A DNA stretch of 64,000 nucleotides, from positions 610-64,609 of the IMG/VR virus record IMGVR_UViG_3300024246_000002; one strand, given 5' to 3'. Both the position numbers and the translations under genes were made by a program. Origin of the DNA: a virus (lineage: Duplodnaviria; Caudoviricetes). The notes beneath the pieces were generated by a model, which saw only the letters and a list, made by a program, of their open reading frames with translations, made no database searches and had not been told where the DNA came from. Of the stretch, positions 8,004 to 61,657 are shown in pieces; position 1 is the stretch's first letter, and every line of letters starts with the position of its first letter.

Positions 8004-11000
8004 GTGGGCGTAGAAGTCCAACACGACGGTCCAGAGAAGTTCGCGCTCGCGGGCTTGGACCTGAACGTCCCAGTGGACCTCGTCCCCGTCGCCAAGTACT
8101 CCCGAGCAACGAACGTCGTCAGCAAGATTGAAGGCCAGCTCCAGACGCGCAACGGCACGGCGCTCATCACGGCGCTTCCGTCGCCCTTCGTTGGCCTTAC
8201 GTATCCGATAACGTCCGCGGTCAGGAACCTGACTCTTCCGCCACAGTGGACGGTTCCCTTCGTTCCATTTCCTGCGGGAACTGTGATTCAGACGACAGGA
8301 TGCTCCAATCCCTCTTACAACGGCACCTTCACGGTCAATCAAATTGTGTTTCCTGGAACCACATTCACCACCAGCAACGGCGCAATTCCTGCGAGCAGTA
8401 ATTCCACAGGAGGGTTAATTACCGTTCTGTCCGGGCCAACGGGACCAGTCAATACTCTATTTCTGCTCACCCAGTACGTTCCGGGAGTGGTAAGCGAGCG
8501 TCTCGCGGCGAACGCGGATGGGAATATCTACACCGCTCCGTTGCCTGGAGGGAACGTATTCACCCAGCTTCTCGGCGGCCCGACGTTCGATGGCTCACCG
8601 CTCTCTATCGTCCAGTTCCGCTTTGATTCCGACCCTGCGGTGTGGGCCATCATCGCCAACTCGAACGGGATGATGAAGCGCCGCGCTGGATACTATCAAG
8701 TGCTGGGCGTCGCGCCTCCAACGCTTCAAGCCGTGGCGACGGCTGGCGGTGCTGGGTTGCTCAATTCAAGCACCGGGACGCCCTACGATTGGCGCTACAC
8801 TTACCTGAATCCGGTCACTCAGAGCGAATCCAATCCCTCGCCTATCATGGTGACGCCAACTGTGACGCGGCCGACAGTATTCACGAACCCTGCGGTTGTG
8901 GGCGATGGAGCGTTCACGAATCCGGGGAATGCGATTGACGGAAGCACGGTGACGTTCGCTCAAGGCGTCGCCACGACGAGCACTATCGGCGCGACAGTCA
9001 CGACGGATTGTCTATGGCGCGCCGCCGCTGCTAACGCCATCGGAATCCTCCAAACCTTGACGCTCAATCTAAATCGCTCGTTCACCCTTATCCAGTCTGG
9101 ATTCGGCCAAGGGACCTACCAATCCTTCTATTCGCTCGACGGCGGTGTTACGTTCACGGGGATTGAAGGCGGCTCAGGGACGTTCGCGCAAGGAACCGCG
9201 AGTGTTAGTCTCCCACCTGGAACCGACTTCACGCAGATTGTAGTCAAGACTGTCATCACAGCGCACGTTCGCATTACTGGCGCGGGCTCCGCTACTTCCA
9301 CGGGGAAAGTGTTCGACATCAATCTCAGCGCGGTCGGCGTGAACGGCACCGTTCTCACGCTCGCTCTCACCAATCAGTCGGCGAATGTGTGTATCACGCC
9401 GCCCACGGACCCACAAGAGACCTCAGCGCGGCTCTACCGCCGCGGAGGCACTCTACCTAACAATTGGTTCTTCGTCGGCGAGTTCACAATCGCATCTCTC
9501 GTTCAGGGCTCATGCGGCGCTGGGACATTGCTCATCAACGACAATGTTCCAGACTCGGTAGCTCAGGTAGGGAACATTCTCCAGATTGATAACTTCCAGC
9601 CCATTCAGAGCGTCCAAGCGGTCAATTTCCCCTTGCCCGTCATATTCGTCTCCTCAGGCACAGGGCGTCTCCTTGGTTGTGGCGACCCGGCGCGTCCCGA
9701 CGCCGTCTACTTCTCGAACGCGGGGAACGCTGACCTGTGGGGCGCAGAGGCATGGGTCGTCGTCGCCAATCCCGGCGAGCAGTGCATGAACGGACTCGAC
9801 TACAATCTGCGGACGTTCGTCTTCTCGCGCGAGCGGATGTACATAATGCTCCCGAATATCGTCGCCGGGGTGACGTTCACTCCCGCTGAGACCGCATGTA
9901 GGCGGGGCCTCAAGGGACGCTGGGCGTTCACCGCAGGCGAGCAGGGAATCTACTTCGTCTCAAAGGACGGAATATATCGCACTCAGGGCGGTCCTGAGTC
10001 GAGCATCATCGACGATTCCATCCGCCCTCTCTTCCCCGTGAACGACGCTGAAGCGGGGACACCGACGAACGGCTACGACGCCATCGACATGGACGACGAG
10101 GATGGATTGAGGATGGCCTATCACAACGGCGAGGTGTGGTTCTTCTACACAGGGTTGACGACCGGGCTGCGGCAGATTCTCATCTACGACGAGCGCCGCT
10201 CTCGCTGGCGTCCCGCCACCTACACCAACCAGATGAACATGAACTATTCGGAGCCCAACACTGATTCGTCGCTCATCTTCGGTGGAACAGACGGCGACGT
10301 CTATCAGGTCTCGGGCTCAACGGATGAAGGGAACGCTCCAATTGCGGTCGAAATCACAACGGGAGCATTCGATCAAGGCCGCCCGCTCAACCTGAAGGAA
10401 TATCTGACGGTCAATTTCGACGTGGATCCTGGTGGGGCGTCCACTCTAAGCCCAATCATCGTTATTCCCCGCATCAATGGCGAGACCGCCTCGGAGTTCG
10501 CACTCCAGATTATCGGCTCCGGTCGCCAGCGCGTCACACTATCACTCAATCAAGCTGGAGTCGAAGTTTACGCCTATAACATGGAATTCGATATCCAGTG
10601 GCAGGGCTCAGCCACCGTCAACCCAATCTTCTACCAGTATGAGATTCTCTACCGTCACGAGCCCACTGAGACGACGCACTGGGAGTTACCTCAGACCGGG
10701 CTCGGGATGGAGGGATGGTTCCATATCCGAGACATCTATGTGGTGCTTCGGTCACAGGCTCCAGTAACGCTCACGGTGACACCCGGCGTAGCCGGCGCAA
10801 CGCCGCTGACGTTCACGCTCCCTAGTACGAACGGCGCGAAAGACACCCTTTACATCCAATTGCCGATGAACAAGGCTAATAGCTATGCGTTCGCGCTGGA
10901 TTCAACCGTCCCGTTCCGTGTCTACGCCGAGGATTGCGCAGTCCGCGTGAAGCAGTGGCTCACGAATCTCGGCTACAAGAGCGTCCCGATTCTGTCGCGC

Positions 11001-43836: not shown

Positions 43837-45054
43837 ATGTACTCGACGCGACTCATCGAACGCTCGCAATCAAAAGTCGAAGCGGCCACCAAGCTGACGC
43901 TCAGGCGCTACGACATCCCCGAGGTGATGCAGCGCAAATCGGACTTGCAGCGACTCGTCAAGGAAGACGGCCAGCTCGCGCGCGACCTCAACACGGAAGA
44001 GAGAGCGTTCATCCGCAACGAGCAGCTCCTGTCGATGATCGATTTCCGCTACTGGCTCACGCGCTACGCTCACCTGCTGGTGGACCAAGGAGGCCTTGAG
44101 ACGTTCTCGTCGCCATGGGAATCTCAAGAGATTCTCCTGCGCTTCATCGCACGTCTCGAGGACGAGATGGTCGATATGGCTTCGCGCGGAGAGAGTGTCG
44201 ATGGCATTCTCATCTTCCTGCACAAGGCGCGACAACTGGGAGCGACCGCACTGGGCCGCGCCATCAGCGTCCATGCAATGACAGCGCGCCATCACACTAG
44301 GGCGATGGCCGCCTCGATCGACGACGACAAGGTACTGGAGCTTTATGACCGAGACAAACTCATCATCGACAACCTGCCATTTTATCTCCGCCCTTCCATC
44401 GGATTCGATGAGAAAGCTCAGCACATCTTTTTCGATAAGTTGGGAAGCCGTGTCATCTATCAGCTTGGAACTCAAAAGAGCGGACTCGGGCAAGGTCGTC
44501 AGTTCGACGTTACGCATCTCACTGAATGTGCTTCATGGCCCTATCCTGGAATCATTGAACATGACTGGATGCCCACAATACCGCAATCCCTCCGGGCGTT
44601 TGCGCTTCTGGAATCGACTGCTCAAGGCCGTGGGAACTGGTGGCACCAACAGGTCAAGAAGCTCTCCGAGCACAGGCTCCGCCGGTGGCATCTAGTCTTC
44701 ATTCCGTGGTACGCCGAGCTGAAGAAGTATCGGGCGACGCCGCCCACGGATTGGAAGCCCTCGGACGAAGCGATGCTCCATGCCCAACGAGTCCACGAGA
44801 CCTCGCGTAAGTACGTGGGTCGGGACGTGATGCTCACGAAGGAGCAATTATATTGGTGGCAATCGACGCGCGATGAATACTATCTGTCGAACAATCTCGC
44901 TGTGTTCTACACGAACTACTGCGCGACGATTGAGGAGTCGTTCCAGTTTAGAGTCAAGAGCGCGTTTGGTTTTGAAACTTTGGAGTACTATCGCAATCGA
45001 GTTCAGGAAGGCACATCCTACAGAATAGACACGGCGCAACTAAATGCCTCATAA
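43837..45054 (+). CDS. terL: Terminase large subunit, ATPase domain only
   Basis: WESQ Q-motif; LHKARQLGAT Walker A; HLTECA Walker B; LESTAQG motif III; FIPWY; stops before the nuclease domain. Confidence 0.85.
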   Translation: MYSTRLIERSQSKVEAATKLTLRRYDIPEVMQRKSDLQRLVKEDGQLARDLNTEERAFIRNEQLLSMIDFRYWLTRYAHLLVDQGGLETFSSPWESQEILLRFIARLEDEMVDMASRGESVDGILIFLHKARQLGATALGRAISVHAMTARHHTRAMAASIDDDKVLELYDRDKLIIDNLPFYLRPSIGFDEKAQHIFFDKLGSRVIYQLGTQKSGLGQGRQFDVTHLTECASWPYPGIIEHDWMPTIPQSLRAFALLESTAQGRGNWWHQQVKKLSEHRLRRWHLVFIPWYAELKKYRATPPTDWKPSDEAMLHAQRVHETSRKYVGRDVMLTKEQLYWWQSTRDEYYLSNNLAVFYTNYCATIEESFQFRVKSAFGFETLEYYRNRVQEGTSYRIDTAQLNAS

Positions 45055-45631
45055 GGAATCGTTGAAGAACTGGCGAATTAAGCAGCGCAAGCGCGGATTA
45101 TGTATTGATTGCGTTAATCCGGCTGTTCCAACTCTGCGTAGTAAATTGGGGTGTTTCTGTAAACACCATCTAGCCGTTCATCGAGTGAGAATGAAGGCGC
45201 GGCGATTGGAAAAGAATGGCCCTCCTGCCCCTCCATTTTCTTTAGACACCTTTGCTAATATATCCGCCGAAGATTTGTCCTACGCGGCTGGATTAATAGA
45301 CGGAGAAGGCTGCTTGAGCGTCTCTACGTATAAGGGGCACAGAAGAATAGCTGTAAAAGTCGGGATGACGAATCCTGAACCTGTCGCATTCATGGCCTAT
45401 ATATTCGGTGGGAATGTGATACCCCGCGACCCGAAAAGAGGTAATCGTAAACGTGTGTACGATTGGGCGAGAGCTTCTCGTCCCGCAGGAGCTATTGCTA
45501 AAGTCCTACTTCCCTATTTGCGTATACCTTACAAAATAAAAGCGGCTGCTGAAATGGTTCGCATTGCGGAATCAATTGAGCGCGTGGTAGAGGCTCAGGG
45601 ATATAAGATTGATGTGGAAAGGGTAGCCTAG
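45044..45631 (+). mobile_element. Free-standing single-motif LAGLIDADG endonuclease with N-terminal Zn finger
   Basis: LSYAAGLIDGEGCLSV; VGMTNPEPV; N-terminal CIDC...C..H; AT-rich. Confidence 0.8.
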
Positions 45632-50756: not shown

Positions 50757-52673
50757 GTGGCCGAGCCCCAAGCCCCCGCAGGAAGCCTCAATGATAGTGA
50801 GCAAGAGCATCTCGACGCCGTTCTAGGCTGGGCTAACGACGCGCTCGCTGAGGGCGAATCCTTCCTCAAATCCCAAGTTGGGTACTCACAGATTTCTACA
50901 TGCATCGACTACATCATGGGCGACTACTCCCGCGATATGGTCCCCGGCTCGTTCTCGAAGCTCATCGACAATCGATTCGGCAAGATCGCCCTCGACTTCG
51001 CCGGCGCGATGACCGACATCAAACCCTTCTGGAATTACACGACCCAGAACAAGCGCTACGAGCAACAAGCAGTGCTCGGCAACAAGTTCACTAAGCACTG
51101 GTGGACCTCGCGCCTCATCGACCTCAAGTTCTGCGACTGCATCAAGTACGCCGAGGTCGCGGGCTCGGGCTACGCTCACCTCTTCTACAACGAATTCACG
51201 GGGGATAATGACTGTTCGCCTGAGGATCCGCGCGATTGCCTCCCTATTCGTCCGCCGAACAACATCTCCATCCAGGATGCGATGGGGCTAATCGTCCGCC
51301 GCGAGCGTCCGCTCAATTACCTCCGTGCCAAATACCCCCGCCAATGGGACCGTGGCCTAATCAAAGCCGACCGCGACATGTCCGCAGCGATGATGGAGAA
51401 AGTCACTCGCGCTCAATCCACGATGCAGCGGATGGGCTTCAGCGGGTTCATGCAGAACCTGTGGGCGTCGCTCGGCGGGAAGCCCGCGGCGCACATGACC
51501 ATTCCCTCCGCAGACGTATTCACGCTGCACGTTCACGATCTGCGGCGGAACGAGGGCGCTTCGCGCGTGTGGGTGGGGGAGGGGACTCCCGAGAAGCATC
51601 CCAATTGGTCCTACTGGGTAGACCCCGGCGACCGTCTCTATCCTCGCGGCCGCACCATCACCTTCACTCGCACTTGTGTCCTCCGCGACGGCCCGAATAT
51701 CTACTGGCACGGACTCTTCCCTATCGTCAAGATTCCCTTGGACCCATGGCCTTGGACGTGGCTGGGCAAGCCCCCCTTGATGGACATCCTGACGCTCCAA
51801 GATGAACTCCACCGACTCCTGCGCGGCGTGAGCGACCATAATCAAAAGGTGTTCAGGCCCGACCTTATCGCTGACAAGAACGCTATCTCTCGCGCCGCGA
51901 TGGCGGCGATCGACACGCGCAAGGCCGGCTTGAAGCTCCGCACCAATCCAGTAGCCGGGAAGAACGCAGAGCTTCAGTACGCTCAGCCTCTCGACCCCTC
52001 CGTCCAACTGGCTATCCAAGACCTCCGCGACGAGATGGACAAGATCAGCGGCGTCCGCGACATGCAGCAGTTTATGAACCTCGGCCAAATTCCATCCACG
52101 GAAACGGTCGAGAAGATTCTCGAAGCGATGTCACCTGCTATCAGGATGCGCTCGCGAGTCCTCGAAGCATCGCTCCGAGAGTTCGCGATGATGTCCCTCT
52201 CGAATGTCTTCCAGTTCTACACTCTCGAAGACCGGATGGCTGTGCTCGGCGACGAAGGGATGACCTTCGAGGACGCCGACAACGACGCTGGCACGATGAT
52301 TCCCGCCTACATGAGCCAAGAGCACCAGAAGGAAGGGAAGAACGTCGAGCGCCATATCCGGGCGAAGTGGTTCCTCAAGCAATTTACGTATGACGTGGCG
52401 CCGGGCTCGCTGCTGAGCGCGTCTGAGGTGACGGACAAGCTCCTTTACATCCAGCTTATGAGAGCTGGATTGATGGACATTTGGACATTGTTCGAGAAGC
52501 TCGGCATCCCGAACGCGGGCAAGGCTCCTGATGGTGCCATCACCATCACCGACCGCCTCATCGCCCAGAACAATATGGGGCTGACGCCTCAAGTAAGCAC
52601 CACCGGCCGCAAAGCCTCCGGCGAAACGATGCCTAAAATGGGCGGAGCTGGGAAGATTACGGAGTCCAAGTGA
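50757..52673 (+). CDS. Portal protein
   Basis: 638 aa; helical N-terminus, beta-rich middle (RTITFTRTCVLRDGPNIYWHG), LQDELHRLL...DLIAD, ISGVRDM; position between terminase and scaffold. Confidence 0.85.
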   Translation: MAEPQAPAGSLNDSEQEHLDAVLGWANDALAEGESFLKSQVGYSQISTCIDYIMGDYSRDMVPGSFSKLIDNRFGKIALDFAGAMTDIKPFWNYTTQNKRYEQQAVLGNKFTKHWWTSRLIDLKFCDCIKYAEVAGSGYAHLFYNEFTGDNDCSPEDPRDCLPIRPPNNISIQDAMGLIVRRERPLNYLRAKYPRQWDRGLIKADRDMSAAMMEKVTRAQSTMQRMGFSGFMQNLWASLGGKPAAHMTIPSADVFTLHVHDLRRNEGASRVWVGEGTPEKHPNWSYWVDPGDRLYPRGRTITFTRTCVLRDGPNIYWHGLFPIVKIPLDPWPWTWLGKPPLMDILTLQDELHRLLRGVSDHNQKVFRPDLIADKNAISRAAMAAIDTRKAGLKLRTNPVAGKNAELQYAQPLDPSVQLAIQDLRDEMDKISGVRDMQQFMNLGQIPSTETVEKILEAMSPAIRMRSRVLEASLREFAMMSLSNVFQFYTLEDRMAVLGDEGMTFEDADNDAGTMIPAYMSQEHQKEGKNVERHIRAKWFLKQFTYDVAPGSLLSASEVTDKLLYIQLMRAGLMDIWTLFEKLGIPNAGKAPDGAITITDRLIAQNNMGLTPQVSTTGRKASGETMPKMGGAGKITESK

Positions 52674-57461: not shown

Positions 57462-58214
57462 ATGAGCACGTTGCAGGAATATCTCAATGAACTGGCTAAG
57501 ACGGCGGGCCTCGATGAAGAGTCGAAGGCGAGCCTGACTAAGGTTCTTGGGAACGCTAAGTTCGCAGAAGAGTTGGAAAAGGGCGTGAAGCGGCAGTCCG
57601 ACTACTCTCGCAACATGGACGAGTTGAAGGCCGAGAAGCTCAAGGTCGATACTCAGATTGGCCAGTGGCGCGAGTGGTACAACACCGCCGTTACACGGGA
57701 CGCCGAACGCGAGGAGGAATTACAGCGGTTGAAGGGCGGGAATCCTAACCCGAATCCCAATCCCAACCCCAACCCGAATCCTGCGCCGACAGGCCTCACC
57801 CAGAAGCAACTCGACGAGGCTCAAAGCCGGATGGTTCAAATCGTAAAGCAGATGGGCCGGGTCAGTTCTCGGCACGCTGCCCAATTCCACGAGGAACTCG
57901 ATGTCGATGCAGTCGAAAAAATTGCGCTCGAAAAAGGGTTGACCGTGGACAAGGCTTACGAAGAGTTCGTTCGGCCCCGCGTCGAAGAGTTGAAGCAGAA
58001 GGACATCGACGAGAAACTCAGGCTGGCTCGCGAGGAAGGTCTCCGCGAAGGCCTATCGAAGCGCGATGTCCCCGACGAAGGCTCCAAGTCCTACCACCCG
58101 ATTTTCGGGCAGCCGAAGCAGGTCGAGGCGACGAAGGGCATGACCGACGCCCAGCGCTCCGCCAACTTCGCCGAGGCATGGACAAAGGAAGCCCTCGCGT
58201 CGAAACATCAGTAA
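57462..58214 (+). CDS. Capsid scaffolding protein
   Basis: Charged coiled coil, (NP)7 linker, RQSDYSR motif; directly upstream of the capsid gene. Confidence 0.75.
   Translation: MSTLQEYLNELAKTAGLDEESKASLTKVLGNAKFAEELEKGVKRQSDYSRNMDELKAEKLKVDTQIGQWREWYNTAVTRDAEREEELQRLKGGNPNPNPNPNPNPNPAPTGLTQKQLDEAQSRMVQIVKQMGRVSSRHAAQFHEELDVDAVEKIALEKGLTVDKAYEEFVRPRVEELKQKDIDEKLRLAREEGLREGLSKRDVPDEGSKSYHPIFGQPKQVEATKGMTDAQRSANFAEAWTKEALASKHQ
57741..57782 (+). repeat. Coding hexamer repeat AA(T/C)CC(N) x7 encoding (Asn-Pro)7
   Basis: AATCCTAACCCGAATCCCAATCCCAACCCCAACCCGAATCCT. Confidence 0.85.
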
Positions 58215-58274: not shown

Positions 58275-59586
58275 ATGGCAGAACTGGATCAATTGAATGT
58301 GGCAACGGAACGCTACATTCAGGATACTCCGGCTCTGGTGGACAACGTTAACTAAATGGCGTTGTATAAACCGCTGGTAATTATCTGGGACGCCCCTAAG
58401 TTGGGCAATCAGAGGCAAGGGTCCACGAAAAGTGGATGACTAGCCGCAGAGACTAAACCCAGTGGCCCGTCTCAGACGGGATGTGATAGTCCGAACTGCA
58501 CTGAAAGGTGCAGAGGTCGTGGAAACAGCGACCCGCCTCGTAAGAGGTCATCAAGTAACAGAATGCTTCCAAGCAGACCCTCTATTGGCTTATCTGAAGC
58601 TGAACGTCCGCGATGATTTCGACGGCGGCACGCTCATTCAGGAAGGCTTCTTCTTTGACGGACTGATTGGTGGACCGTACGCCAAGGGCCAAGAATTTGA
58701 TATCTCGGAGAAACAGGTCGAGCAGGCCTATCAGCTCAACATGAAGTTCTTCGAGATGAACGTCACGATGTCGCTCGAAGACATCAAGGTCCTGAACAAG
58801 GGGCCTCGTGCGGCGTTCAAGCTCATCGACAGCCGCATGACCAACGCTTACATGACGCTTGGTGCCCAGATGTCCATCCTCCAGTACATCAACGGCACCA
58901 CGGCGGGCTACACCTCCAACTTCAACGGGTTCGCTGAAGCGCTGAACGACAACACGACCGTCTCATGGGACAACGCCACCTATGCGACCTACGGTGGAAT
59001 CACCCGCGGCGGCCAAGTCGGCACCGCGCTCAACTCCGCCCCTGTGAACATCAACGGGACGATCGAGTACAACCAGCTCGAAGAGAACTACGGCACCGCC
59101 TCATTCGGGAACATCGAGCCGAACTTGGGCGTGACGACCGTTCTCGGCTATTCCTACGTGAAGGAGAAGTTCCAGACACAGCAGCGCTTCAACGACACGC
59201 AGGATCCGGCGATCGGCTTCAACGGCCTCAAATTCAACTCGGCGACCATTATCAAGTCCCGCTACGCTCCGGGGACGGATATCACCACCACGTCGCCCCA
59301 GTCACAGTCGAACAGGATCGCCGTCCAAGCATTGAAGACGATGTCTCAGGGCGCCGTCACCGCCTACCCGACCCTCGCTCAATCCGGCGAGACGTTCTGG
59401 TGGATTAACGCCCGCAAGCCCTTCCTTCGGTTCTACGTCTCGGACGACCCGATGTTCGGCTTCGGCTTCACTGGCTTCAAGCCCGCTCAGGGCAACACGA
59501 AGGTCTCTGGGCAGGTTCTCGCGTCGTGCCAAATCTCAGTTCCTGGCCCGCGCTACCACAAGCAGATGTACGGGATCACATCCTAA
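58275..59586 (+). CDS. Major capsid protein, spliced: exon 1 58275-58348 plus exon 2 58566-59586 (364 aa)
   Basis: Joining gives MAELDQLNVATERYIQDTPALVDNV-FQADPLLAYLK...GGTLIQ, an uninterrupted capsid-like N-terminus; position after the scaffold. Confidence 0.85.
58349..58565 (+). ncRNA. Group I self-splicing intron without ORF (217 nt) in the major capsid gene
   Basis: P1 ACAACGU/GCGUUGU with U.G at the 5' splice site; P3 CGCUGG/CCAGUG; P4-P5 UCUG..GCCC/GGGCAAUCAGA; P6a UCCAC/GUGGA; GCAGAGACUA/GAUAGUCC (P7); P8 CCCGUC/GACGGG; three P9 hairpins; terminal G at 58565. Confidence 0.9.
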
Positions 59587-59601: not shown

Positions 59602-60144
59602 ATGCCACAGACAATCACTGACCAGACTGTATATCTCTCCACAGGTGACCCCGAAACCTACGGAATCACCACCGCCATCACCACGCCCTACAAGCCGGGT
59701 GAGCTTGGGAAGAAGTTCGTCGCCTCGACGGGCAAGCGCTACCAGCTCGTCCAGCTCGACTCCTCGAGTTCGACGACGGCAGCGAATCAGCTCGTGTTCT
59801 GGGCGCAACGGACTCTCTACACCGTTACAGCCGCATATCAGGACACGCGAAACTTGGCGAGTCTAAATGGTGTCGCGGGCCGCGCGCCGGGCATAGTTGC
59901 TGCTTCAGGCTATTTCGCCATGCAGATTGGTGGCTCCGCTGTTTTGAACTATGCGGGAACCACTACAGCAGGCGCAGTGGGCGGGGCAGTCATCGCGCGC
60001 GCAAGTAACAACACGGTTGGGGCTGCCGATGCGACTACGCTCGGTACGGCTCCGGTTCAAAAAGTGGTTGGATGGGTGACGACGGCAGCTACGACTACAC
60101 AAGTTACCTGTTCACTCATACTCGATGACGGCGAGGTGCTCTAA
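59602..60144 (+). CDS. Capsid cement/decoration protein
   Basis: AAGGAGG RBS; directly after the capsid gene; ...GELG...GKRYQLVQ...GYFAMQIGG pattern. Confidence 0.65.
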   Translation: MPQTITDQTVYLSTGDPETYGITTAITTPYKPGELGKKFVASTGKRYQLVQLDSSSSTTAANQLVFWAQRTLYTVTAAYQDTRNLASLNGVAGRAPGIVAASGYFAMQIGGSAVLNYAGTTTAGAVGGAVIARASNNTVGAADATTLGTAPVQKVVGWVTTAATTTQVTCSLILDDGEVL

Positions 60145-60406: not shown

Positions 60407-61657
60407 ATGGCACAGGAAACTTACGCCGAGCTTTGGCGGGCGCTTCAGTTGCACTCGCCAGTGCTTCCAACCACGCTCGCTCAGCAATTTATTCGCTCGC
60501 GTTTTAGGGATGTTAGAAGAAAAAGGTTATGGTCATGGCGCATCGGCCAGAACCAGTTCATCACGCCAGATGTCTACTCGGTGGGTCTCGCCTCGGCGAC
60601 GCTCAATTCCCCCGTCATCACCGGGTCTGGAACAGGTTGGACCAGCGCACTCGTCGGACGGCAATTCCGCTTCGGCGCGGTCGCCCCAATCTACACCATC
60701 ATCGAGGTTGACTCGGCGACGCAGCTCCAGATTGACCTTCCGTTCGGCGGCGTCGTCCCCGGCTCGCCCACAGGCTATCAAATCTTCCTCGCTTACCTGA
60801 CTCCGCCAGCGGACTTCCAAGACTTCATCTCGCTGAAGGACACGTTCAACAACTACCGACTGTGGCTCCACTTGAGCCAAGAGGAGCTGGATACCTATGA
60901 TGCTCAGCGCTCGTGGAGTGGAACTGCGTATGGGGTTGCTGACTACCGATACTCGACATCGCCTACGGCCGGAAGTGTGGGCGCTGCAGTCCAAGTTGTC
61001 GGCACTGTAGGCGACGCCGCTCCCGTCCTCTTCGGCACCTTCAGCGGTCGCACCAACGCCGTTTACTCCATCAATATCACCACTGGAGGCCCCGTAGGCA
61101 CCGCTCAATTCACTTGGGCGCTCAATGGCGGCGCGCCGAACGGTCCCTTCGCTACCGCTCAATCACCCTTCGCGATGTCCAACGGTGTCACGGTCCAATT
61201 CCCCTCCAACATCGGCAACTACGTCCTCAACGACGTCTTCGTCTCACCCTGCACGCCGGGATTCACTGCCCAGATCCCCATGTACGAGCTGTGGCCCTAC
61301 TGCATGTCTCAGCGTGTCTACCCCTTCATCTACGACAAGCGGTTCCCCGACCTCGACGATCCCAATGGCTTAGTCCCGCCGTTTATCGACGCCGATGTGC
61401 TCGTCAAAGGCGCTCTCGCCGACGTCTGCCGGTGGCGCGGCTCCCAGACGACGCCCAATCCGATGTACGGACTGGACACCGCCATGTCATTCGAGAAAGA
61501 ATTCCAGATGAAGGTCGCTGAGATGGAGCGCGAGGACGACGAGGTCTATCTCGTGGACGTCCGCTACCAGCTCAACTCTTGGCAGGGCTTGGGGATGGCC
61601 CCGATGCCCTTCGCAATGGGCGCAGATTGGGCGCAGTCTCACGCGGTCTCAGCATAG
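60407..61657 (+). CDS. Head-tail adaptor/ring protein with inserted beta domains
   Basis: TYAELWRALQLH...AQQFIRSRF...W.W; C-terminal LWPY...YPFIY...DLDD...VPPF.DADVLVKGALA. Confidence 0.65.
   Translation: MAQETYAELWRALQLHSPVLPTTLAQQFIRSRFRDVRRKRLWSWRIGQNQFITPDVYSVGLASATLNSPVITGSGTGWTSALVGRQFRFGAVAPIYTIIEVDSATQLQIDLPFGGVVPGSPTGYQIFLAYLTPPADFQDFISLKDTFNNYRLWLHLSQEELDTYDAQRSWSGTAYGVADYRYSTSPTAGSVGAAVQVVGTVGDAAPVLFGTFSGRTNAVYSINITTGGPVGTAQFTWALNGGAPNGPFATAQSPFAMSNGVTVQFPSNIGNYVLNDVFVSPCTPGFTAQIPMYELWPYCMSQRVYPFIYDKRFPDLDDPNGLVPPFIDADVLVKGALADVCRWRGSQTTPNPMYGLDTAMSFEKEFQMKVAEMEREDDEVYLVDVRYQLNSWQGLGMAPMPFAMGADWAQSHAVSA

Follow-up and report, generated by a model that had tools for sequence, protein, structure and literature searches.

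A compact, probably self-splicing group I intron without an open reading frame in the major capsid protein gene of a metagenome-derived tailed phage

Where does the major capsid protein gene of this phage begin, and is the sequence that divides its reading frame a genuine intron, a relic of one, or a device that serves the phage? The stretch of DNA analyzed here (64,000 nucleotides, hereafter the window) comes from a metagenomic record of a complete 64.6-kb genome with direct terminal repeats, and the exons, the intron, and the endonuclease gene described below lie on its plus strand. At the capsid locus, a frame opening with ATG at 58275 runs through 24 codons and the GT of codon 25, translates as MAELDQLNVATERYIQDTPALVDN(V) in agreement with the N-termini of uninterrupted homologues, and is closed by a TAA at 58353 to 58355. 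A second long frame, from GTG 58462 to 59586 (374 amino acids), is the product expected from a gene caller; its match to the phrog_9953 profile begins with the F encoded at 58567, at profile position 34, leaving about 30 N-terminal residues absent. Removal of 217 nt (58349 to 58565) joins exon 1 (58275 to 58348, ending in U58348) to exon 2 (58566 to 59586, starting with C58566, which completes codon 25, and continuing through 339 codons to the stop). The insertion point thus falls after the second base of codon 25, dividing the valine codon GT|C, and the joined exons read ...ALVDNV|FQADPLL..., with GACAACGT|CTTCCAAG as the letters at the junction. The tryptic peptide predicted to cross this junction is YIQDTPALVDNVFQADPLLAYLK, which includes DNVFQADPLL. 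We conclude, with a probability of about 0.93, that the insert is a genuine and probably self-splicing group I intron that lacks both P2 and an open reading frame (ORF), that it is a selfish element and not a regulator, and that it interrupts the region encoding the N-terminal arm of an HK97-fold major capsid protein.

The boundaries of the insert are set by an intron-less allele. A 364-residue homologue (P0001) equals exon 1 plus V plus exon 2 letter for letter, with exon 2 100% identical, and its DNA (L002) belongs to the 64,011-bp genome of a sister phage that also carries terminal repeats. In a blastn comparison, window and sister are collinear with a gap at precisely 58349 to 58565, and no other placement is possible, since moving the insert by a single base in either direction breaks the GTC codon. 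The spliced coding sequence differs from that of the sister at 74 of 1,095 bases and at none of 364 residues; exon 1 alone has 12 synonymous differences and no amino acid difference. Silent-only divergence of this kind indicates that both exons are under protein-level selection as one gene. Uninterrupted homologues at 68 to 89% identity all span the junction as well (VDNVFQ, VDNIFQ, or VDSWSQ), and the insertion site is conserved, D23 being nearly invariant and P30 showing no variation in the 18 close homologues in alignment A1. [quoted passage not shown] Its junction and coordinates prove exact, its expectation that capsid homologues would align across the junction holds, and it had rightly anticipated both a stop just inside the intron in unspliced RNA (GTT AAC TAA) and a false automatic N-terminus at 58462, the start of the 374-residue GTG frame.

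A group I covariance-model search, proposed earlier as a check, returned the expected family. With E-value reporting, the only Rfam match in the 64-kb window was to RF00028, which aligned across the whole model (positions 1 to 253) to 58339 to 58513 with 41.6 bits (E = 2.5e-9 on 501 nt; E = 3.3e-7 on the whole window). This score lies below the curated gathering threshold of 50, and an Rfam search at gathering thresholds reported nothing for the intron; that threshold belongs to a single broad model and is no definition of the ribozyme class. The helices P1, P3 to P9, P9.1, and P9.2 were first laid out manually, and the unconstrained minimum-energy fold (-87.9 kcal/mol; z = -4.7; 0 of 200 shuffles equally stable) reproduces all of them except the P7 pseudoknot, which cannot be represented in such a fold.

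Within this layout, P1 (58342 to 58365) pairs the end of exon 1 (58342-58348) with an internal guide (58359-58365), puts U58348.G58359 at the 5' splice site, and gains two further pairs inside the intron (58349-58350 with 58357-58358). P3 (58371-58377 with 58459-58465) encloses the P4-P6 domain, which comprises P4 (58385-58388/58409-58412), P5 (58392-58395/58403-58406), P6 (58414-58416/58443-58445), and P6a (58421-58426/58432-58437). Every counted pair of P3, P4, P5, and P6 shows compensatory changes, with 85 to 98% of cells paired; P6a and the innermost P5 pair (58395/58403) lie outside that count and are placed by the minimum-energy fold. P7 (G58449 and 58451-58455 with 58487-58492) carries a bulged A58450, forms a pseudoknot with P3, and is presumed to be the guanosine-binding helix; the presumed site (G58449-C58492, bulged A58450, G58451-C58491) keeps its bulge in relatives. 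P7 encloses P8 (58466-58471/58475-58480), which is followed by J8/7 (58481-58486). Three hairpins with GNRA loops complete the structure: P9 (58496-58502/58507-58513; GAAA loop), with covariation in all six pairs; P9.1 (58515-58521/58526-58533; GAAA loop), with compensatory changes relative to the homologous intron of contig L020 described below; and P9.2 (58536-58539/58544-58547; GUAA loop), taken from the minimum-energy fold. The terminal G (omega-G) is G58565, at the 3' splice site fixed by the intron-less allele. All the parts named in the original prediction (P1 with U.G, P3 to P9, and the terminal G) were therefore located, with P9.1 and P9.2 besides. There is no P2, and nothing stands between the 3' strand of P3 and P8. 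P10 is weak in the window, with two of five guide-exon 2 pairs compared with five of five in L020, and the second splicing step may consequently be less efficient or depend on other contacts.

Covariation across a wider family supports these helices. Metagenome contigs were scanned with a pattern joining the R and S core elements, which gave 77 loci, and a covariance model of the core (R1; P3 to P6, P8, and P9, with P7 and P1 excluded) was made from six sequences. R1 matched the window once, at the intron (142 bits), and found 142 related introns, 134 of them distinct, among the fetched loci; by R1 score the window intron ranks second best of the 142. Over 34 pairs in seven helices of the 134 distinct sequences, 96.4% of cells are standard pairs and 33 of the 34 pairs show changes on both sides, the P3/P7 pseudoknot included, in an alignment whose fitting to R1 flatters P3 to P6, P8, and P9 and leaves P7 outside the model. 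None of 500 shuffles reached the observed values, and sliding the 3' partners by one to three columns reduced pairing to 35 to 45%. P7 pairs in 99% of cells despite its absence from R1, and its outer pair beside the bulge takes four forms (GC 61, AU 50, UA 13, CG 6). P1, likewise outside R1, was assessed by asking whether the 7 nt that immediately precede the core can pair with a segment a little farther upstream: a perfect 7-bp helix is present in 83 of 127 distinct members, compared with 7.8% after shuffling. Of these 83 helices, 81 have U.G at the loop-side end.

Other searches reached fewer members. Two short-motif scans of viral contigs gave mostly chance matches, the true relatives being only L028 (the same contig as L020) and an intron shared by L030, L032, and L038. 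The latter copy (L030 2398-2552, identical in L032 and L038) sits on an AT-rich phage contig, belongs to the same family (88 bits with R1), and is followed by further AT-rich sequence with a possible ORF. The compact intron family is therefore found in hosts whose GC contents differ widely. On L125 (9590-10996), and also on L093 and L079, five cores of this family occur per contig; those of L125 fall within about 1.4 kb, which would leave room only for very short exons unless the introns follow one another in tandem.

The interrupted gene encodes the shell protein of the virion. The exon 2 product matches the phrog_9953 major head protein (E = 3e-11), and tblastn relates the capsid protein to major head proteins annotated in Tunturiibacter phages (E = 2e-19) and in Myxococcus phage Mx8. 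An AlphaFold2 model of the spliced protein built from a 70-sequence alignment has a pLDDT of 87.8 and a pTM of 0.82; one built from 18 close sequences (pLDDT 39) was discarded. A profile search of PDB sequences with the capsid protein gave nothing useful. With Foldseek against the PDB, every match listed is a shell protein of the HK97 fold; most are phage capsids and a few are encapsulins, and they include Mic1 (E = 3.5e-12; TM 0.64 to 0.69), SU10, lambda, and HK97 itself (1ohg; E = 3.8e-8). On the predicted structure, the spliced product is an HK97-fold major capsid protein in which residues 1 to 25, encoded by exon 1, form the N-terminal arm. The gene lies downstream of a portal-like gene (50757 to 52673) and of a 250-amino-acid ORF (57462 to 58214) that is a candidate scaffold by position, with no convincing family match for its protein. 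The 250-residue protein also contains a run of seven Asn-Pro repeats (GGNPNPNPNPNPNPNPAP).

The distribution of introns among related capsid genes was surveyed in IMG/VR, where a first scan yielded 24 capsid loci on 23 contigs and a second returned largely the same contigs; a blastn search of the locus against GenBank phages found no match. About 17 of the 24 loci are uninterrupted, including the closest (L002 at 100% and L003 and L021 at about 85% protein identity). Three intron forms occur at two sites. The ORF-less form is shared by the window and L020 (60% protein identity); the L020 copy is a homologous intron of 276 nt, also free of an ORF and inserted at exactly the same position, in which P3 and P9.1 show compensatory changes and P10 comprises 5 bp. 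The two introns are 74% identical and the exons 63% identical at the nucleotide level, an excess too modest to tell horizontal from vertical descent. At the same codon 25 site, L009 (1782-2492) and L010 (about 1797-2480) have an insert of about 700 nt with a LAGLIDADG-like ORF whose start codon lies within the 3' strand of P1, and their guide changes jointly with the exon. Finally, in L018 (1884-2468), L019, and L022, codon 53/54 is the site of an intron about 690 nt long whose ORF is of the LAGLIDADG_1 type. The ORF-bearing introns of all five contigs score weakly with R1 (16 to 23 bits).

Several further features of these introns deserve mention. The ORFs of L009, L010, and L018 cross the 3' half of the ribozyme core and have a common ...AEMT(S/V)PQTI(H/Q) tail, and the window-type, L009/L010, and codon 53/54 introns begin with a nearly identical leader, UAACU(R)AAAUGG. 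The 217-nt intron of the window (58349 to 58565) holds no endonuclease ORF, its longest ORF being 27 codons (58356 to 58439). This mini-ORF starts with MALYKP, similar to the MAMFKP and MAMYKP that open the endonuclease ORFs of L009 and L010; the likeness reflects common RNA sequence, and the mini-ORF may be a remnant. Among other capsid homologues, P0011, P0074, P0080, P0093, P0108 to P0112, and P0119 start abruptly near residues 30, 40, 57, or 65 on long contigs, and one abruptly starting homologue has a foreign N-terminus. These are probably mis-called intron-containing genes and possibly point to further intron sites.

We propose the following sequence of events. In the late transcript, a ribosome on exon 1 would halt at the TAA located 5 nt into the intron, leaving the ribozyme free to fold; in-frame stops after the upstream exon are common in group I introns and have been discussed in the context of translation versus ribozyme folding (PMC3984707). 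The guide and the end of exon 1 form P1, as sequence and covariation show, with U58348.G58359 at the splice site. By analogy with the rest of the family, a free guanosine would bind in P7 beside the bulged A58450 and attack the 5' splice site, G58565 would then replace it, and the 3'-OH of exon 1 would join exon 2. Ligation would restore codon V25 (GT|C) and with it the 364-residue capsid protein. Two readings that dispense with RNA splicing are rejected: an intein, since a stop codon in frame lies 5 nt inside the insert, and translational bypassing, since the insert is a full ribozyme core. An assembly artefact is unlikely, given that L020, from an unrelated sample, has the homologous intron at this very position.

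Two readings accept the insert as a group I intron and differ on its condition or role. [quoted passage not shown] The idea in the original prediction that the intron is retained as a regulator, a GTP/Mg2+-sensitive splicing gate that times capsid output, draws on circumstantial points, namely an essential, late, and highly expressed host gene, a 26-residue peptide predicted from unspliced RNA, and the existence of bacterial allosteric group I ribozymes that act as sensors (reviewed in PMC3984707). It is highly improbable and was not borne out. The sister phage makes the identical 364-residue protein from an uninterrupted gene, most related loci are also uninterrupted, other relatives have different introns here or at the second site, and no sensor domain is seen beyond the standard helices of the family. 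The intron-less sister allele and the uninterrupted loci show instead that the intron is dispensable and patchily spread. Absence from the closest relative together with patchy spread in the clade favors a selfish element over a regulator, and patchy distribution combined with a conserved insertion site is the signature of a mobile selfish intron. The selfish intron of the window was probably gained by homing, the alternative being precise deletion elsewhere.

How an intron without an endonuclease gene might move is a separate matter. Collaborative homing, in which an ORF-less intron is served by a free-standing endonuclease targeting its insertion site, has been documented in other phages (reviewed in PMC3984707). 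The window shares with such systems an ORF-less intron and a free-standing homing-endonuclease gene in one genome. An example is psbA of phage S-PM2, and in published cases the endonuclease gene generally adjoins the intron-bearing gene; in the window it lies 13 kb away, in the terminase region. This candidate trans-acting gene (45044 to 45631) encodes a single-motif LAGLIDADG-type endonuclease (motif LSYAAGLIDGEGC; phrog_5046, E = 4.5e-18), although a Pfam search of the ORF found no domain and profile searches of the genome with PF14528, PF01844, and PF13392 found none. The earlier suggestion that mobility is supplied in trans by a free-standing LAGLIDADG or HNH enzyme thus stands in part: the LAGLIDADG gene exists, but evidence for homing in trans amounts to a weak hint, and neither PF01844 nor PF13392 revealed an HNH gene. 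In favor of this enzyme cutting intron-less capsid alleles and moving the intron, both genomes with the ORF-less intron (G000 and G003, the latter that of L020) have a P0121-like free-standing LAGLIDADG gene, whereas of 19 other related genomes only one has a strong match to the endonuclease, and G001, the near-identical sister, has neither intron nor endonuclease gene. In G003 the endonuclease gene belongs to the head module, where it comes after a portal-like gene and precedes the capsid gene by about 2.3 kb. Synonymous divergence is also raised in a patch around the insertion site (58292 to 58748, 80 to 93% identity to L002, within an identity mosaic), which lies between 100% identical blocks and resembles a co-conversion tract. 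Against it, the 13-kb distance would preclude co-conversion of gene and intron, intron-free parts of the region show comparable divergent patches, and the few, related genomes make for a weak association. Strong relatives of the 45044-45631 product occur only in G002 and G003 and in none of 15 other related genomes; these two relatives are only 30 to 33% identical to it, which suggests different target specificities, and G002 has the endonuclease gene together with an intron-less capsid gene. On balance, we regard homing by this enzyme as unlikely. It is similarly doubtful, as a broader proposal, that the capsid N-arm region is a landing pad for the three intron forms whose ORF-less copies are moved by free-standing LAGLIDADG enzymes hopping between terminase and head modules; if true, the locus would show, in nature, introns and endonucleases that are still being put together as composite mobile introns.

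Comparison of the window with the sister genome also showed local differences. Only the last 19 residues of the 45044-45631 ORF match G001 (9803-9859; 84%), where they are part of a 403-amino-acid frame, and the sequence suggests that the endonuclease gene inserted near the 3' end of an upstream gene (43837 to 45054) whose end was taken over or duplicated. Between the window and L002, blocks of 95 to 100% identity are cut by sharp patches of 50 to 80% identity at 57692-58051, 59829-60128, and 60489-60608, which affect the 250-amino-acid gene preceding the capsid gene and two structural genes that come after it. Such a pattern indicates that patchwise recombination is frequent between co-circulating phages.

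Introns in phage capsid genes are already known from LittleE, Tuc2009, and crAss-like phages, and the premise that phage introns lie mostly in DNA-metabolism genes overlooks published examples in capsid, tail, terminase, and lysin genes (PMC3706429, PMC7886860, PMC12880540). Mycobacteriophage LittleE has a group I intron with a LAGLIDADG gene in its major capsid subunit gene, with splicing demonstrated by RT-PCR and N-terminal protein sequencing; a 265-bp ORF-less intron in the minor tail gene of BAKA and Optimus was shown by RT-PCR to be spliced, and that study also refers to an intron in the capsid gene of lactococcal phage Tuc2009 (PMC3706429). Like LittleE and BAKA, the window has its intron in a structural gene of a tailed phage, with U ending exon 1, G ending the intron, and intron-less close relatives; the BAKA intron is also ORF-less and of similar size. 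The LittleE capsid intron differs in carrying a LAGLIDADG gene and belonging to another phage group, whereas that of the window lacks such a gene and is predicted from its sequence to splice. In crAss-like phages of the Delta and Zeta groups, group I introns split the major capsid protein genes (PMC7886860). These phages share with the window a split capsid gene in a metagenome-assembled genome that confounds automatic annotation, but their introns were found via endonuclease domains and reach very high density, with up to four interruptions per gene, compared with one ORF-less intron here. Jug jumbo phages contain many ORF-less group I introns of about 206 nt, part of them confirmed as spliced by metatranscriptome reads (PMC12880540). 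They resemble the window in having small endonuclease-free introns in essential genes along with free-standing homing endonuclease genes, but are gut phages of 360 to 402 kb with about 18 introns per genome, as opposed to one in 64.6 kb. The T4 td and SPO1 DNA polymerase introns belong to subgroup IA2. They have in common with the window intron a P1 with U.G, P3 to P9, the P3/P7 pseudoknot, and omega-G; the window intron is much shorter and ORF-less and has neither P2 nor P7.1/P7.2. Lacking P2, and lacking P7.1/P7.2 between the 3' strand of P3 and P8, it does not look like IA2.

The most immediate consequence is a correction to annotation: the capsid protein starts 187 bases upstream of GTG 58462 and needs RNA splicing, and the same correction of the N-terminus is probable for several relatives, for example P0108 to P0112 and P0011. 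The intron adds a well-supported compact, P2-less group I family, of which the default Rfam threshold misses at least the window copy, and is a further instance of selfish introns lodged in phage structural genes that are conserved. These capsid genes combine three intron forms, at two sites, with intron-less alleles that differ by synonymous changes only, and would lend themselves well to the study of intron gain, loss, and trans-homing in nature.
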